Positions 589 to 54,319 of a DNA stretch of 64,000 bases are shown in pieces. The stretch is from assembly GCF_050920415.1 (NCBI RefSeq), contig NZ_CP169309.1. One strand, written 5' to 3'. This DNA is from Escherichia coli (GTDB lineage Bacteria > Pseudomonadota > Gammaproteobacteria > Enterobacterales > Enterobacteriaceae). The notes below the pieces were generated by a model, which worked only from the letters and a program-made list of their open reading frames with translations, was not told the DNA's origin and did not search any database. A program made the translations under genes and the position numbers. The stretch's first letter is position 1. Every line of letters begins with the position of its first letter.

Positions 589-657
589 GAGAGAAAACCC
601 CCGCACGTTGCAGATATTCACCTGACAACATCACGGGGGCTAATCTTGAACCTAGAC
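589..657 (-). ncRNA. rdlD: Rdl antisense RNA, antitoxin of ldr (unit 1)
   Basis: Reverse complement gtctaggttcaagattagcccccgtgatgttgtcagg...gcgggggttttctctc matches my recollection of RdlD and ends in a GC stem plus U-tract. Ends are approximate. Confidence 0.45.
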
Positions 658-705
658 CACTCAAGAATAGCCGCGAAACGTTGTCATTACAACACAGGCG
701 GCTAT

Positions 706-813
706 ATGACGCTCGCAGAACTGGGCATGGCCTTCTGGCATGATTTAGCGGCTCCGGTCATTGCTGGCATTCTTGCCAGTCTGATCGTGAACTGGCTGAA
801 CAAGCGGAAGTAA
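706..813 (+). CDS. ldrD: Ldr-family type I toxin, 35 aa (unit 1)
   Basis: ATG at 706; MTLAELGMAFWHDLAAPVIAGILASLIVNWLNKRK. Small hydrophobic peptide with basic C-terminus, matching LdrD. Confidence 0.85.
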   Translation: MTLAELGMAFWHDLAAPVIAGILASLIVNWLNKRK

Positions 814-863
814 CGTGTCAGACGGGCGTCAGGCTGCCGTAATGGCAATTTGCGCCCGGACCA

Positions 864-895
864 GGCCGCAGGGATAAAACTCTGCGGCCTTTTTC
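864..895 (+). terminator. Rho-independent terminator of ldr unit 1
   Basis: Stem ggccgcag...ctgcggcc followed by tttttc. Confidence 0.6.
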
Positions 896-1071
896 GTAAG
901 AAAAATGCAACGGTTGCAAGCGGATAATATTCTGCGGAATGCGCAGCACAGAGTGAAGAAGTGATGGATTCTGGAACAGAAAAACAGTCGTAGAATCAGC
1001 GGCAAGCCGGAAGGGTTCCGGTGAGGCGCAATGTTGCGGGGGCTTTATCCCTGGTGGCATTGGTTGCTGGA

Positions 1072-1140
1072 GAGAGAAAACCCCCGCACGTTGCAGGTAT
1101 GCACCTGACAACATCACGGGGGCCATTCTTGCATCCAAAC
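1072..1140 (-). ncRNA. rdlD: Rdl antisense RNA (unit 2)
   Basis: Same position in the repeat as unit 1. The 5' part differs (ccattcttgcatccaaac variant). Confidence 0.4.
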
Positions 1141-1188
1141 AATACAAGAATAGCCGCGAAACGTTGTCATTACAACAGAGGCGGCTAT

Positions 1189-1296
1189 ATGACGCTCGCA
1201 GAACTGGGCATGGCCTTCTGGCATGATTTAGCGGCTCCGGTCATTGCTGGCATTCTTGCCAGTCTGATCGTGAACTGGCTGAACAAGCGGAAGTAA
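1189..1296 (+). CDS. ldrD: Ldr-family type I toxin, 35 aa (unit 2)
   Basis: ATG at 1189; peptide identical to unit 1. Confidence 0.85.
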   Translation: MTLAELGMAFWHDLAAPVIAGILASLIVNWLNKRK

Positions 1297-1346
1297 CGTG
1301 TCAGACGGGCGTCAGGCTGCCGTAATGGCAATTTGCGCCCGGACCA

Positions 1347-1378
1347 GGCCGCAGGGATAAAACTCTGCGGCCTTTTTC
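1347..1378 (+). terminator. Rho-independent terminator of ldr unit 2
   Basis: Same hairpin plus T-run as unit 1. Confidence 0.6.
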
Positions 1379-1555
1379 GTAAGAAAAATGCAACGGTTGC
1401 AAGCGGATAATATTCTGCGGAATGCGCAGCACAGAGTGAAGAAGTGATGGATTTCGACGAACAAAAATGGCCGTAGAATCAGCGGCAAGCCGGAAGGGTT
1501 CCGGTGAGGCGCAATGTTGCGGGGGGCTTTATCCCTGGTGGCATTGGTTGCTGGA

Positions 1556-1624
1556 GAGAGAAAACCCCCGCACGTTGCAGGTATGCACCTGACAACACCA
1601 CGGGGGCCATTCTTGCATCTAGAC
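1556..1624 (-). ncRNA. rdlD: Rdl antisense RNA (unit 3)
   Basis: Same position in the repeat; approximate ends. Confidence 0.4.
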
Positions 1625-1672
1625 CATTCAAGAATAGCCGCGAAACGTTGTCATTACAACAGAGGCGGCTAT

Positions 1673-1780
1673 ATGACGCTCGCAGAGCTGGGCATGGCCT
1701 TCTGGCATGATTTAGCGGCTCCGGTCATTGCTGGCATTCTTGCCAGCATGATCGTGAACTGGCTGAACAAGCGGAAGTAA
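1673..1780 (+). CDS. ldrD: Ldr-family type I toxin, 35 aa (unit 3)
   Basis: ATG at 1673; MTLAELGMAFWHDLAAPVIAGILASMIVNWLNKRK (L to M variant). Confidence 0.85.
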   Translation: MTLAELGMAFWHDLAAPVIAGILASMIVNWLNKRK

Positions 1781-1830
1781 CGTGTCAGACGGGCGTCAGG
1801 CTGCCGTAATGGCAATTTGCGCCCGGATCA

Positions 1831-1862
1831 GGCCGCAGGGATAAAACTCTGCGGCCTTTTTC
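1831..1862 (+). terminator. Rho-independent terminator of ldr unit 3
   Basis: Same hairpin plus T-run. Confidence 0.6.
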
Positions 1863-2038
1863 GTAAGAAAAATGCAACGGTTGCAAGCGGATAATATTCT
1901 GCGGAATGCGCAGCACAGAGTGAAGAAGTGACGGATTCCGGAACAGAAAAACAGTCGTAGAATTAGCGGCAAGCCGGAAGGGTTCCGGTGAGGCGCAATG
2001 TTGCGGGGGCTTTATCCCTGGTGGCATTGGTTGCTGGA

Positions 2039-2107
2039 GAGAGAAAACCCCCGCACGTTGCAGGTATGCACCTGACAACATCACGGGGGCTAATCTTGAA
2101 CCCAAAC
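2039..2107 (-). ncRNA. rdlD: Rdl antisense RNA (unit 4)
   Basis: Same position in the repeat; approximate ends. Confidence 0.4.
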
Positions 2108-37188: not shown

Positions 37189-37203
37189 TTTTTACCCAGA
37201 CAT

Positions 37204-37309
37204 AAAAAAAACCCGGCATAGGGGACCGGGAAGAGGATAGTCTGCCGTCTCCAGACTAATAAACCGTTATAACACTCCCTGTTGGCACGGGAAACTTTGT
37301 GCTCTCAGT
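37204..37309 (-). ncRNA. gadY: GadY small RNA, antisense to the gadX 3' end
   Basis: Reverse complement begins actgagagcacaaagtttcccgtgcc and ends in a poly-U terminator (A-run 37204-37211 on plus). Ends are approximate. Confidence 0.6.
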
Positions 37310-37555
37310 AAGTTAAATATAACTTTTACTGGAGATAAGATCAGCCATTTTTTTATAAACATAAGCTATGCGCTGTGTGAAAATATATTCTTCTTGCATT
37401 TTCTTATTATCAATTAACTGTTATGTCAAACTACTTTTTGGATAACTTTTGGTCCTACCAAATATGGCAGTTTATGCACGAAGAAGCGGTCTGGCATCAT
37501 TTCATTAGTATACTGAAATTGAAATAATCGCAGTAATGAAATATAAGGGATAGTC

Positions 37556-41784: not shown

Positions 41785-42942
41785 TTATTGTTTCGATTCG
41801 GTGCTGGCGTTTTCCTGGCTGGAGGAAATTGCACGTGCTTTGATACCCGGATGAATACGTTGCAAACCGGAAACGATCACCCGATCGCCAGCCTGCAAGC
41901 CAGAGGTGACAACCCACTGGTCACCGATGGCTTTGCTGGCTTCGATTTCGCGTAGCTGCACGACATCGTCTTTATCCAGAATGAGTGCCGTTGCTTTACC
42001 CTGGGCGTTGTGGGTGACGCCTTCCTGCGGCACCAGTAATACATTCTGGCGGCTACCTTCATCCACTAATGCCGTGACATACATACCTGGCAGCAAATCA
42101 CCATTGGGATTGGGGAAAATTGCCCGTAAGGTCACGGACCCCGTGGTTTCATCCACCGTCGGGTCGGAGAATTTCAGCGTGCCGGTCTGGCTGTAACGTT
42201 TACCATTTTCCAGATTGAGCTGTACTGGCGTACTGCCCTGAACCTGTTTGATTTGTCCACTGGCGACCTCTTCTTTCATGCGCAAAAAATCCTGCACCGA
42301 CTGCGTGAGATCGACATAAATCGGGTCCAGACGTTGCACGGTAACCAGTGAATCGGCTTGATTAGCGGTAACGAGTGCGCCGACGGTCACCGATGATTTT
42401 CCGCTGACGCCCGTAATCGGCGAGGTGACATTCGCGTATTGCAGGTTGATAGTCGCCTGTTCAACAGCCGCTTTGGCGACGGTGACATTGGCTTCTGCTT
42501 CATTCAGCTGGGTGCGTGCGGTGTCGTAATCCTGACGGCTAACGTAGTTGGTCTTCAGCAATGATGCCTGGCGGTTAAAGGTGATGCGGGCATTGCTGGC
42601 GGTTGAGAGTGCTTTCGCCAACGAGCCTTTGGCGGAGTTTAGATCGGCCTGTAAAGGCGCAGGATCAATCTGATACAGCGAATCGCCCTGGTTCACTTTA
42701 TCGCCTTCGATAAAGTTGCGTTTAATGATAATACCGCCCACCTGGGGGCGTATCTCGGCAACTTCATAAGGAACGGTTCTACCGGGCAATTCGCTCAACA
42801 CATTGACCGAACCGGGGGAGAGTGTGACGACACCGACCTCAGGCGTCATGGCGGCGGCGTTTTCCGTCGATTTGTCATCGCAGGCGGTGAGCATCGCGCC
42901 GCAGAATAACAACGGTATTAACAGTTTTCTTCTTCTGTTCAT
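41785..42942 (-). CDS. mdtE: RND efflux membrane fusion protein MdtE (lipoprotein)
   Basis: 385 aa; lipobox LTAC. Confidence 0.92.
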   Translation of the reverse strand: MNRRRKLLIPLLFCGAMLTACDDKSTENAAAMTPEVGVVTLSPGSVNVLSELPGRTVPYEVAEIRPQVGGIIIKRNFIEGDKVNQGDSLYQIDPAPLQADLNSAKGSLAKALSTASNARITFNRQASLLKTNYVSRQDYDTARTQLNEAEANVTVAKAAVEQATINLQYANVTSPITGVSGKSSVTVGALVTANQADSLVTVQRLDPIYVDLTQSVQDFLRMKEEVASGQIKQVQGSTPVQLNLENGKRYSQTGTLKFSDPTVDETTGSVTLRAIFPNPNGDLLPGMYVTALVDEGSRQNVLLVPQEGVTHNAQGKATALILDKDDVVQLREIEASKAIGDQWVVTSGLQAGDRVIVSGLQRIHPGIKARAISSSQENASTESKQ

Positions 42943-43280
42943 TTTAGTCCCTGAAAATTCTTGAGATATAACGGTTCTTTAAATTGCGCGCGAGGAGAGG
43001 TATGAGGGATTTACAGACCAGCGGCATAGTGGGGTTGTCAGCCAGTAAGATGGGATGCAAGCACAGTGATCGACATGGTGAGGTCAACGACAAAAAAAAT
43101 GTTGCCGTTCTGCCAACAGTTCCTGCCAGCATTCGGGCAACGAAGGGTTCTACTGGTGGATACACATACCAGGGGAATAAAGTCGTTTTCGCCTCTCCTT
43201 TAGTCATCACCGGGGATAATGAAATCAGCATCTGCATCCCTCTTCATGCCTGCCATCATTTTCAGTTAATTATGTCCTGA

Positions 43281-43808
43281 CTAAAAATAAGATGTGATAC
43301 CCAGGGTGACGATGTCGCTCATACGTCTTAGTTTCAGCTTGTACATAATGTTGAATTTCTGAATCTTTAATGTTTGTTGCGAAATATTGAGCGTTGACGT
43401 GATATTGCTTTCGTTTTTGTTTTTCAGAATTAGCTGCATAATTTTGAACTGATTATGTGAAAAACATAATTGTGAATTCTTATGAGGCAAGTGTTTACCA
43501 TAAGTAATCTCAAGAAGATTTTTGATACTTTCTTTGCGGCTGACAAAATAAATAGGCGCTTTAGCTTTTAGTTTACTGATGTGATAAGGTGCCAAAACAA
43601 TAATTCTCTCGGCGTCTAATTTCTCCAGAAATTTAATCGCTTCTTCATCAAGGATATGGTTGTGATAGGTATCAATGATAACCTTGAAGGGTTTATTACC
43701 TACTTTTTTGATCTCTGACAGGGAATTGATTTTTATCATTTCGTGATTATCTTTCAACTGCCAAAAGCCCTGTAAAAGAAAAGAATCTTTCGTCATGAGA
43801 AAAATCAT
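43281..43808 (-). CDS. gadE: LuxR-family acid-resistance activator GadE
   Basis: 175 aa, MIFLMTKDSFLLQGFWQLKDNHEM... Confidence 0.92.
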   Translation of the reverse strand: MIFLMTKDSFLLQGFWQLKDNHEMIKINSLSEIKKVGNKPFKVIIDTYHNHILDEEAIKFLEKLDAERIIVLAPYHISKLKAKAPIYFVSRKESIKNLLEITYGKHLPHKNSQLCFSHNQFKIMQLILKNKNESNITSTLNISQQTLKIQKFNIMYKLKLRRMSDIVTLGITSYF

Positions 43809-44606
43809 AACTTACTCCTTAGCCGTTATCGTTTCGAACATGTCATCCTTTTCATTATTTACATCCCTGTCCGAATCGTTGTTCAATATAGTAAACGCCT
43901 ATAAGAACCTTGCCCTTCGTGAACTAATACGTCTATTAACACTAATCAATACTTCAGATTTATCCATCACGCACTCCATATATTGATCCTAAGTAAAATT
44001 CCTGGTTGTTATCAGATTGTAAGCTGCAAACAAAAAATTAACGTTTGCGGATTACTGCCCAAGAATAAGTTATCAATAACCAGTTTGTGATCTCTGAAGA
44101 ATATTACTAAAGTTAAAATGTAATCCGATTTAAATATCGAGTCTCCTTGTTTCGACTTAAGCTGGCAATTGGATTGCCAGCTTTCTTTTAACGCATTGAA
44201 ATTACCTGAGTAAATAACTCATTCATGTCTTCAGGTTTTTATATAGCGTCTGGAGACACGGATATTTATGCAATGTAATCAACGCCAGTTGCAAAAAAAT
44301 GAACCCGGATTACTTATTTAACCGCCCATAGCATCAACGTTTACGGAACTCTTTGTTCACTTTCCCACAGCACTTTTAAAACATTAAACCTGACTACGGA
44401 AAATATCAGCCATGATAATGTTTGAAATGGCTAATTTGCCATGCAATGAAAAAAATCAGATAAAATTCAGTAGGTTGAAATACTCATCAGCAGGTAATTA
44501 TTTCAATGATAGCGCGCAATTGATCTAAAATGCTGTGTAGCGGAGAGAGTATTAATTGGATCATAGTCACATCAAGTGACTATGATCCAGGTGGCAATAG
44601 GGATAA
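43809..44606. promoter_or_regulatory. Extended AT-rich gadE upstream regulatory region
   Basis: Roughly 800 bp of AT-rich non-coding DNA upstream of gadE; known in E. coli as a multi-promoter sensory region. Confidence 0.6.
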
Positions 44607-45179
44607 TTATTGCTTTTTAACAAACAAACTGGCGAAGCTGAACAGGCTAGCGGCGCTAAATATCAGTTCAATTCCCACTAGTGTGGAAACCAGCGTTACA
44701 GAAACCATCGGCGTTGCACCAAGGAATATCCAGGCAATGACGATATCCAGCACACCAATAACGAGCTGTAGCCAACTGCCTTTCATTGAACGCTGACGAT
44801 ACCAACTCATCAGACGAATAACTCCTGCCACACAGAACAAACCGGCAATAAATGCCGCAATGGCAAAAATGCCCAGCTCCGGTGCGCGGATGAAGAAATA
44901 GCCGATCAATAAATAGGCGACTGCGACGAGGAAACCGGATAATACCGGCCAGAAATTATGACTGCGGTTGCTGAATAGCCCGACAATAAGCGCAATGCCC
45001 GAGCAGATTAATAATGCACCCACTACTGTGCTTAAAATGTCGCCAGAGACGAACGGAAAACTGATACACAGCAACCCGACGATAAACAGCAGCACGGCAA
45101 TAAACTGGATTGCTCTGCGATGTTTTTTAAGCATCTCCAGATCAAACTTCAAAATTGTTGCCTTATCTATATATAACAT
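44607..45179 (-). CDS. hdeD: Acid-resistance membrane protein HdeD
   Basis: 190 aa, multi-TM. Confidence 0.9.
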   Translation of the reverse strand: MLYIDKATILKFDLEMLKKHRRAIQFIAVLLFIVGLLCISFPFVSGDILSTVVGALLICSGIALIVGLFSNRSHNFWPVLSGFLVAVAYLLIGYFFIRAPELGIFAIAAFIAGLFCVAGVIRLMSWYRQRSMKGSWLQLVIGVLDIVIAWIFLGATPMVSVTLVSTLVGIELIFSAASLFSFASLFVKKQ

Positions 45180-45433
45180 AGAACCACCCTATAAAATTAA
45201 GAAGAAAATCCCCTGCTATCAATCTATGCCAAAAACGCGTCTAAGAATGCAGTCGATTTAATAAAAATTTCCTAATTACAGTATCTGATGCATCTGTAAC
45301 TTATTGTATTGAAATAAAAATATCTGATTTTGATATTTTCCATCAACATGACATATACAGAAAACCAGGTTATAACCTCAGTGTCGAAATTGATTCGTGA
45401 CGGCTCTTTCACTTTATAGTTGAGGATATTACG

Positions 45434-45766
45434 ATGAAAAAAGTATTAGGCGTTATTCTTGGTGGTCTGCTTCTTCTGCCAGTTGTGAGCAATGCAGCGG
45501 ATGCGCAAAAAGCAGCTGATAACAAAAAACCGGTCAACACCTGGACCTGTGAAGATTTTCTGGCTGTGGACGAATCCTTCCAGCCAACTGCAGTTGGTTT
45601 TGCTGAAGCACTGAACAATAAAGATAAACCAGAAGATGCGGTTTTAGATGTTCAGGGTATTGCAACCGTAACCCCAGCGATCGTTCAGGCTTGTACTCAG
45701 GATAAACAAGCCAACTTTAAAGATAAAGTTAAAAGCGAATGGGACAAAGTTAAGAAAGATATGTAA
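45434..45766 (+). CDS. hdeA: Periplasmic acid-stress chaperone HdeA
   Basis: 110 aa with signal peptide. Confidence 0.93.
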   Translation: MKKVLGVILGGLLLLPVVSNAADAQKAADNKKPVNTWTCEDFLAVDESFQPTAVGFAEALNNKDKPEDAVLDVQGIATVTPAIVQACTQDKQANFKDKVKSEWDKVKKDM

Positions 45767-47647: not shown

Positions 47648-48214
47648 TTATTTGACCAGCTCAGGTGTTACTTGACTCACCGCATTGGTGTAGTAAGGCG
47701 CGCCCCAGCCCGGTTCCGGCCAGAATGCACCATAGCCGTAATCCCACAGGTTATAGGTGGTATTAACCACTTCTCTCAAATGCCACACCTGGATTCCCTG
47801 CATATTCACTTCCAGGAAGTTATACGGGACTTTATTGATAAAGCCAGGTTGTTCACCCTGAATGGTACCGAGGATGGTAACAAAGTGATTACGATAGTTC
47901 ACTGGATCAAGGAAGCCGCTTTGTCTGGCGAGCAGTCGGCCCTGATAGTTGGCTTCAATATCAGGCTTCGCATAGCTATCCAACGGTAATACAGCGATTT
48001 CTAACAACGTATCCGTTTTGCCATTGATAACGTTGATAACCTTCCCGCCAAAGCGCGCTTGTTGACCAACATATAACCCCGGCTGGTTATGAACAGCAAC
48101 AAAACTTTTTTGAATATCAGGTTGGTTATTGCCTTTGATATTTTGCGGAATTGAACTACATGCGGCAAGCAAAAATGAAAGGCTGAGGATGAGTGCACCT
48201 TTTGTCATGTTCAT
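47648..48214 (-). CDS. slp: Starvation-inducible outer-membrane lipoprotein Slp
   Basis: 188 aa from the minus-strand ATG at 48214 (MNMTKGALILSLSFLLAACSS, lipobox LAAC); the listed ORF extends 73 codons upstream. Confidence 0.88.
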   Translation of the reverse strand: MNMTKGALILSLSFLLAACSSIPQNIKGNNQPDIQKSFVAVHNQPGLYVGQQARFGGKVINVINGKTDTLLEIAVLPLDSYAKPDIEANYQGRLLARQSGFLDPVNYRNHFVTILGTIQGEQPGFINKVPYNFLEVNMQGIQVWHLREVVNTTYNLWDYGYGAFWPEPGWGAPYYTNAVSQVTPELVK

Positions 48215-48459
48215 GTTACTATCCTTATCAACAAATATTAAAACCATAATAGATATTTCTTTATAGTTTTCATCTGATTCTGAGGCGATATGCCTGATAG
48301 TAACGTAAACCTGTCTGATGTTTATATCCCTTCTGTTTAGTTTTATTCTGTTAATTTTGGGGCGTGACATGAGTATCCATCGCCCCATAAAATAGCCTTT
48401 TTTTAAAGGTACATAAAATCTATTTTTATTCAATACTTATAAAGCGCTAATGTTCAATA

Positions 48460-49683
48460 TTATGGGGTTATATTCTGGTAATGATTTGATAAGCGAATTC
48501 TTTTGCCAGTTGGTATTTCTATTTCCACCCCATAATTTATAGTTTTTTCATCAGGTAGCGATCTCTTTAAATAAGGTGCGTATGACATTTTTTTAGGATG
48601 AAACGTATCGTGTTGAAATATTTCGAATTGATATTCAGACATTTCTGCCCATGTTTGAATTTTATTGTATCGGGAGAGTGTCGTAAAGGCTTTAACTTGC
48701 TTATAACATTGTTTTTGGAATTCTTGCTGATATTTTATTATGTCGTTGTATGAAAGATTATTTACCCTGGTTTCTAATAATTCTATTATTGTCGAAGCAA
48801 TTTCCGCTTTTGCTCTTAAAGAGTTGTCATTAATGGTTAATAATGTTGAAAATAAACCATTGATTTGTTTGTCAACATATTGTTCATCTTTATGTAATTT
48901 TGTGATAGGGTTTTCCTTATGTGAAAAAATAGTATCAAATAAATTTGCGTCAGTGAAGTTTACATTAAGTAGATCTTCGAAATAAAACCTTGACAAGGTT
49001 AGAACGAACCCGGACAGGTCCTGTCCTGTCATATTGAAATCAATAAAGTTGGTTCCAGCAAAGACTTTCATCCTGTTTTCATTTTTACTGTGCTCAATAT
49101 ACAACCTTGTCATTTTTTGGTACAAGCGTTGAATATCTTTTATATCAGTTGGTAGATCAGTTCGTTGCCCAGAAAAATTTTTATTTTCGGAAGAAACGGT
49201 TTGGACACTGAATCTTACTGGTATTCCCTCTTCTACGAGAATTTTAGTTATGATTGGCTTATTGGGCTTAGGATTAAAGACAACAATGATTTTAGATTCA
49301 GAGTTTTTATTCTTTTCGTATCTAATGTTATTAATCTGATTAAGTATTGATTGTGTCTGTTGCGTAAGTGGTGTCGAACTTATCGTTTCAATGTTATTAA
49401 TAAGTTTTACAAGTTGAGCCACAACTTTTGAGTAGTCTGCATTTGTATATGTGGTGTTCGTGTGGCACGCATTAATTTGTTGGAGTTGTTGTTTCGCTAA
49501 ATCAAATTGTTCAGCGTTATATCCTTCTTCAGACAATGAAAAATTAACGGGTTGCTGTTCTTCCTGATTATCACAAGGCCACATCGGTGTGTTTGGTGTT
49601 TTAACATTGTCGGTATCTGTTGTGCGGTTATAAATATCGCCGTGATATGTGTTTATCATACCTGGGGTAAAGTCAATTGACAT
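48460..49683 (-). CDS. AT-rich hypothetical protein, 407 aa, possibly an uninterrupted yhiS ortholog
   Basis: Low-GC ORF rich in N, K and Q; segment [41 protein letters not shown] resembles pentapeptide-type repeats. Sits between slp and the ars region, where K-12 has an IS5-disrupted yhiS. Confidence 0.6.
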
Positions 49684-53849: not shown

Positions 53850-54000
53850 ATTGCGCTCCTGATTGTTGCACTTAGTGTCTCTCTTCGAAGCGGATAAGTC
53901 AAAAACATATATGTTTTAACGAATGCATAAGTGCAAAAGTAAGTAATAGGTGTGAATTTTGAGTTGGGTATTCATTTGAAAGGAAGGCTGAATCAGGATG

Positions 54001-54083
54001 TAAAAAAACCGACTTTGCGTCGGTTTTTTACTCTTCAGCCAGAGTTGGTGGCTCTGGCTGGAGTGAGAATGCCCACATCTAAC
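54001..54083 (-). ncRNA. agrB: AgrB small RNA (antisense regulator of dinQ)
   Basis: Repeat unit with terminator hairpin aaaaaaaccgactttgcgtcggtttttt at 54002-54030; segment complementary to the dinQ 5' region; spacing to arsR matches K-12 as I recall. Ends are approximate. Confidence 0.5.
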
Positions 54084-54234
54084 GGTTCAATACTATTAGC
54101 CAGTGGCTAACATTGCAAGCGTTAGCGATTTCTTCAGCTGGCGAAGGGACAGTTTGCTATACATGGTGGTGAAAGAGGATTGATATACTTTCATCGGGTC
54201 GCTGCCGTACCAAGCCTTGTCCGAATCCGGACGT

Positions 54235-54319
54235 AAAAAAACCGACTTACGTCGGTTTTTTTACTCTTCAGCCCTGAGTTGGTGGCCCTGGCTGGAGTGA
54301 GATAGCCATCATCTAACAC
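54235..54319 (-). ncRNA. agrA: AgrA small RNA (paralog of agrB)
   Basis: Second copy of the same unit, with hairpin at 54234-54262. Ends are approximate. Confidence 0.5.

Follow-up and report, generated by a model that had tools for sequence, protein, structure and literature searches.

For some 20 years, work on Escherichia coli K-12 has addressed PgadE, the control region upstream of gadE, which encodes the master regulator of acid resistance. PgadE is reportedly the '750 bp sensory integration region' of Sayed and Foster (2009), is said to have been treated by Ma et al. (2004) as well, and its antisense sRNA ArrS was reportedly described by Aiso et al. (2011, 2014).

In K-12, the gadE promoter has been termed 'unusually large 798 bp', and more than 10 regulators of it have been reported, including H-NS, EvgA, YdeO, GadE, GadX and GadW (PMC3708157). 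On its own, the 798-bp fragment is enough for regulated expression of a lacZ fusion, several 5' ends map inside it, promoter deletions show function, and an antagonism between H-NS and ArcA is described (PMC3708157). H-NS/StpA occupancy extends across the hdeAB-hdeD-arrS-gadE locus of K-12 (IPOD-HR and ChIP data cited in PMC3708157 and PMC11230228), and upon induction H-NS/StpA give way to local activators (PMC11230228; PMC3708157). The gadE transcript is also a binding target of CsrA (PMC11210196).

As for ArrS, it lies antisense to the gadE leader of greatest length, and acid induces it through sigma-S and GadE (PMC6755755). Its pairing in cis triggers an RNase III-dependent maturation of the gadE mRNA, by which stability and translation go up (PMC6212723; PMC9032294). 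ArrS also acts in trans, i.e., with Hfq on cfa (PMC5145812; PMC6755755) and, via its terminator loop, on fepA (PMC11979758).

Identity of the hdeD-gadE region

We studied a stretch of 64,000 nucleotides of E. coli DNA (the window) with a focus on the gap between hdeD and gadE. All features are listed in Table 1. The gene order is mdtE-gadE-hdeD-hdeA-hdeB-yhiD, with mdtE downstream of gadE and with hdeA, hdeB and yhiD divergent from hdeD, and the gap is part of the slp-gadA acid fitness island. The first-pass annotation had correctly called GadE and HdeD as the proteins encoded on its two sides. The RefSeq annotation of a near-identical genome holds no feature in 43809-44606. The closest complete genome, E. 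coli strain MFDS1022581, is 99.96% identical to the window over 496-50853 and 99.96-99.98% over 496-62664, apart from an IS2 element. This IS2 interrupts a permease gene in MFDS1022581 and is absent from the window at about 50853.

First, we compared length and composition of the gap with its surroundings. It had been described as unusually long and AT-rich, and both statements hold. Its coordinates are exact, and 798 bp is the largest value among 55 intergenic gaps (median 107 bp; ranking taken from the annotation of MFDS1022581). Its G+C content of 35.6% compares with 50.0% for the whole window and falls within the lowest 3.4% of the 798-bp windows of that sequence, the lowest values being found near 48100-48700. 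The gadE CDS is, at 33.3% G+C, even more AT-rich than the adjoining gap. The AT-richness is therefore a trait of the whole island and not specific to the non-coding part. The A/T tracts, which had been singled out as a feature of the gap, do not stand out: we count 4 homopolymer A/T tracts of at least 5 nt vs. 3.7 +/- 1.9 in shuffled sequences, i.e., no excess, and 12 runs of W of at least 8 nt vs. 8.4, a number that 8% of the shuffles reach. The tracts are thus what the base composition predicts.

Next, we aligned the gap to K-12 MG1655. It corresponds to positions 3657568-3658365, with 798 bp in both sequences, no indel and 32 substitutions (96.0% identity), which establishes the identity and the coordinates of the region directly. 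Of 5426 complete E. coli genomes, 5413 contain the hdeD-gadE intergenic region. The gap is thus orthologous to its K-12 counterpart and very probably serves as the long, H-NS-silenced, multi-promoter control region of gadE. This agrees with the earlier expectation of several promoters and regulators upstream of gadE, given the multiple starts and more than 10 regulators reported for the K-12 region (PMC3708157). The first-pass annotation had named a single simple promoter and no antisense RNA as the picture that would speak against it; 5' RACE results and sRNA studies already published for K-12 show otherwise. Since the K-12 findings are published and the core sequence is identical enough for transfer, the essentials are already known. 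That is, the multi-promoter gadE region and ArrS are correct but not new, and what we add are the window coordinates of ArrS and of the published starts, the agreement of the functional core with K-12, and the rare, strongly diverged distal allele.

Table 1. Features located in the window. Minus positions are relative to the gadE ATG.
Feature	Position	Strand	Remark
gadE CDS	43281-43808	-	175 aa; ORF map; WP_000576690.1 is GadE in a near-identical genome
hdeD CDS	44607-45179	-	ORF map; upstream neighbour of gadE on the same strand
hdeD-gadE intergenic region	43809-44606	-	798 bp; very probably the multi-promoter gadE control region with the long gadE leaders
arrS (b4704)	44120-44189	+	70-nt cis-antisense sRNA; K-12 ncRNA 3657985-3658054 via the gapless alignment
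ArrS intrinsic terminator	44159-44189	+	11-bp stem, 3-nt loop, then UCUUUU
T3 start (-566), promoter P3 (putative)	44374	-	PMC3708157, transferred from K-12
T2 starts (-317/-324), promoter P2 (putative)	44125/44132	-	PMC3708157, transferred from K-12; inside arrS
T1 start (-124), GadE-autoactivated promoter P1 (putative)	43932	-	PMC3708157, transferred from K-12
5' end 'T' (-21) (putative)	43829	-	PMC3708157, transferred from K-12
Conserved core, 400 bp	44038-44437 (-629 to -230)		holds P3, arrS and P2; flanked by two hypervariable patches
Hypervariable hdeD-proximal segment, 169 bp	44438-44606 (-798 to -630)		upstream of P3
Hypervariable patch	43997-44037 (-229 to -189)		between P2 and P1
26-codon uORF (MECVMDKSEVLISVNRRISSRRARFL)	43979-43899 (-171 to -91)	-	in the T2/T3 gadE leaders
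63-codon ORF	43795-43986	+	antisense to the gadE start
Perfect 14-bp hairpin, 5-nt loop	44557-44589	-	begins 17 nt past the hdeD stop
ES205 sRNA	43092-43163	-	Rfam, 105 bits (gathering score 86); gadE-mdtE spacer, gadE 3' UTR
GadY	37199-37312	-	150 bits
Four rdlD antitoxin copies	592-2107	-	opposite the tandem ldr toxin array
Two AgrB copies	54000-54316	-	near dinQ

ArrS, transcription starts and sequence conservation

An antisense sRNA against the long gadE leader had been expected in the gap, without a position. We find it as a 70/70 match to K-12 arrS, which K-12 RefSeq annotates as antisense to gadE. Counted from the gadE ATG, it spans -312 to -381. Besides the ArrS terminator, which is called on the + strand alone, 43700-44700 contains no terminator-like site; ArrS folds with -20.2 kcal/mol (z = -3.8). 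A scan of 42800-45600 with Rfam 15 at E-values up to 1 gives no family over arrS, so the assignment rests on the identity to the K-12 annotation.

Given the gapless alignment, K-12 position -n equals window position 43808+n, by which the published 5' ends can be placed. The T3 leader spans the whole of arrS and is the only leader to which ArrS is fully complementary. T2 is placed inside arrS, so that T2 and ArrS would overlap only at their 5' ends, by 6-13 nt; P2 and the arrS promoter would thus lie back-to-back and overlap. For the latter, CTAAAGT (44107-44113, + strand) upstream of 44120 would make a plausible -10 element with a C at -13, which, in our own interpretation, fits the reported sigma-S dependence. 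As for the 5' end at -21, it has been published as a start but may instead stem from processing.

The sequence around these positions is preserved. There are zero differences to K-12 at -635 to -532 (T3), -410 to -230 (T2) and -188 to -105 (T1). All 32 differences are outside the mapped starts, their -10/-35 zones and arrS, and none lies within about 60 bp upstream of T1, T2 or T3. Motif searches contributed little beyond that. A sigma-70 consensus scan of the region yields 4 sites vs. 4.0 in shuffled sequences and recovers neither P1-P3 nor the arrS promoter; this fits activator-dependent promoters and gives no independent support. For a GAD-box consensus (TTAGGATTTTGTTATTTAAA), the best match in the gap is 13/20, i.e., no good site, and an H-NS motif scan of the gap returns weak matches only. 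We therefore placed no regulator sites.

For the present strain, the starts, the binding of regulators and the processing by RNase III are taken over from the K-12 experiments by homology. Accepting this, gadE(-mdtEF) would be transcribed from several starts on the - strand, i.e., T3 at -566, T2 at -317/-324, T1 at -124 and possibly an end at -21. The promoter segments would answer different inputs, namely EvgA/YdeO in mild acid and GadX/GadW/RpoS in stationary phase, with GadE autoactivation at P1, an anaerobic action of ArcA and MnmE at P3, and repression by H-NS across the AT-rich DNA. The long gadE leaders would be targets of post-transcriptional control: ArrS, made from the promoter back-to-back with P2, is expected to pair perfectly with -381 to -312 of the T3 leader, and RNase III would process this duplex to give a gadE mRNA that is shorter, lasts longer and is translated better. 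In addition, ArrS may work in trans through Hfq, e.g., on cfa and fepA.

To assess conservation, we used an alignment of 10 sequences (window, K-12, seven spread E. coli genomes and Escherichia sp. MOD1-EC7003). When contigs were scanned for GadE residues 7-16 by means of a degenerate pattern, only E. coli, MOD1-EC7003 and one chance match in Flavobacterium came up, so the cross-species depth is small. Here, arrS is the least variable block, with 2/70 variable columns (2.9%), which is significantly below the 15% observed for third codon positions of hdeD and gadE (binomial p = 8e-4). The other blocks show 20% (-798 to -567), 13% (-566 to -382; mostly two deletions in MOD1-EC7003), 11% (-311 to -125) and 5.6% (-124 to -1). 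The two arrS variants, 44160 A>G and 44177 C>U, both fall within the stem of the terminator. They keep G-U pairs on the ArrS strand but would produce C.A mismatches on the gadE-sense strand. This one-sided retention of pairing supports selection on the + strand hairpin.

The deletions in MOD1-EC7003, a member of a cryptic clade, comprise 9 bp at window 44357-44365 (-557 to -549), just downstream of the T3 start, and 4 bp at 44320-44323 (-515 to -512); its arrS is identical. Two further strains show a natural loss of the regulator. In SCU-152, gadE is annotated as frameshifted, and in strain 3059 a Tn3-family fragment replaces all sequence from gadA through -232 of the intergenic region, including gadE and arrS.

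The differences between window and K-12 are distributed unevenly. The hdeD-proximal segment holds 19 in 169 positions, followed by 2/402 alignment columns in the core (-629 to -230), 6/41 at -229 to -189 and 5/188 at -188 to -1, compared with 14/573 (2.4%) in hdeD and 10/532 alignment columns (1.9%) in gadE. Among complete E. coli genomes, 4069 match the core at 99% identity or more, and another 1340 match it at 95-99%. The distal 169 bp reach at least 99% identity in only 17/5426 genomes, 90-95% in 2405 and 80-90% in 1519, and they are undetected by megablast in about 1480. The window thus combines a rare distal allele with a near-invariant core. Since the distal segment is about 11% off K-12, any regulator sites upstream of P3 could behave differently here.

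Given its base composition, the stretch could alternatively be a functionless AT-rich spacer left from the horizontal acquisition of the acid fitness island. The whole neighbourhood is indeed AT-rich, the gadE CDS included, and variability in the hdeD-proximal 169 bp exceeds that of third codon positions. Against this, the 400-bp core shows the 2/402 difference to K-12 and the near-identity in 4069 genomes given above, well below the divergence of either flanking gene, and deletions within the K-12 promoter show function (PMC3708157). Conservation and published deletions refute the spacer reading for the core, and for the stretch we grant it virtually no probability.

Several variant states of the distal allele also occur in strains NR319 and ECO21 and in Escherichia sp. 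MOD1-EC7003, which suggests old haplotypes or recombination. The second patch, at -229 to -189, shows several three-state columns among the 10 sequences within conserved surroundings.

Reading frames, the hairpin after hdeD and neighbouring RNAs

Nine ORFs of at least 20 aa overlap the gap. We rejected a 38-aa ORF (+ strand) as a gene given stop codons in 9/9 other Escherichia sequences, and likewise the 88-aa ORF (+ strand) that overlaps hdeD antisense, the ATG of which is absent in 8/9 others (MOD1-EC7003 keeps it), with additional in-frame stops in 2 of the 8 sequences without ATG. A 35-aa ORF changes freely among the 10 sequences. Searches of the ORF products of the gap against Pfam and NCBIfam gave no match, and neither K-12 RefSeq nor the PGAP annotations of the compared genomes hold a CDS in the gap. 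The ORFs are hence interrupted in other strains or without any Pfam/NCBIfam match, in line with the initial view that the gap holds no convincing ORF and that the listed one antisense to hdeD is no exception.

Two frames deserve separate consideration, since the gap would be partly coding if the 26-codon uORF or the 63-codon ORF (+ strand) encoded an unannotated small protein. Both are open in 10/10 Escherichia sequences, and an AGGA can be read 7 nt ahead of the uORF's ATG. On the other hand, they sit in a stretch that is conserved anyway, and their substitutions are all nonsynonymous, i.e., 3/3 in the uORF and 5/5 in the 63-aa ORF, where one removes the stop. Neither has a Pfam/NCBIfam match or an annotated CDS, and a full-text literature search for a gadE uORF returned nothing relevant. 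We thus regard a coding function as very unlikely.

The uORF also enters a broader scenario, in which the region is a mosaic of two regimes. Here, a near-frozen core (P3-arrS-P2) would stand beside strongly diverged haplotypes, 10-20% apart, of the 169 bp upstream of P3 and of the 41 bp upstream of P1, and the 26-codon uORF, with its Shine-Dalgarno sequence, would be translated and link translation of the leader to gadE output. This scenario appears improbable. If it were true, allelic variation could tune the strength of the gadE switch-on between lineages.

At the hdeD side, a strong hairpin follows the hdeD stop codon. For a 78-nt stretch that includes it, the folding energy is -24.5 kcal/mol (z = -7.0). 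Among the 10 sequences the stem is invariant with varying flanks, except that the outermost pair covaries from U-A to C-G. Two strains carry an inverted loop, with ATTAA where MOD1-EC7003 has the reverse complement TTAAT. The hairpin is no canonical intrinsic terminator, as neither strand has a U tract after it; it probably represents the stem-loop at the 3' end of hdeD. A full-text literature search on hdeD termination or read-through gave nothing relevant.

Such a hairpin also allows for a different view of the gap, namely that some of it is untranslated sequence within a transcript reading through from hdeD into gadE, with the hairpin as a processing or stabilising element and some gadE expression from the hdeD promoter. 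hdeD and gadE share a strand, and the lack of a U tract together with the conserved stem and its one compensatory pair change would suit this view. However, the isolated 798-bp fragment suffices for regulated lacZ expression and contains several 5' ends (PMC3708157), and published work handles the hdeD TU as separate (including PMC11230228). Read-through is thus unlikely and, moreover, would add to the explanation as a multi-promoter control region rather than replace it.

Beyond the gap, the Rfam scan of 42800-45600 has a sole real match, ES205, which is located inside the 91-nt gadF sRNA annotated in the gadE 3' UTR of K-12. With ES205/gadF on one side and arrS on the other, gadE is flanked by two sRNAs. 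A snoRNA match at 44497-44608 (26 bits) was discarded as chance. In the near-identical genome and the other E. coli genomes compared, PGAP calls a 92-aa 'hypothetical protein' at 43002-43280 (+ strand), antisense to the GadF/ES205 RNA and abutting the gadE stop. This call is likely spurious because K-12 RefSeq has no such gene.

Comparison with K-12 PgadE, ArrS and GadY

Finally, we related the locus to the described systems. The core of the region matches K-12, so the K-12 knowledge transfers to the window. With K-12 PgadE, the region has in common the flanking genes and their orientation, the length of 798 bp and an identical sequence around all mapped starts. It differs by the 32 substitutions, which are concentrated at -798 to -630 (19) and -229 to -189 (6). 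For ArrS, the sequence, the antisense position (-312 to -381) and the terminator are all the same as in K-12, with no sequence difference.

Like ArrS, GadY (gadX-gadW) is a cis-antisense sRNA encoded in this island and directs processing by RNase III, and both also act in trans with Hfq (PMC5145812). They differ in the site of pairing: GadY pairs with the 3'/intercistronic region while ArrS pairs with a 5' leader, and the two sequences are unrelated.
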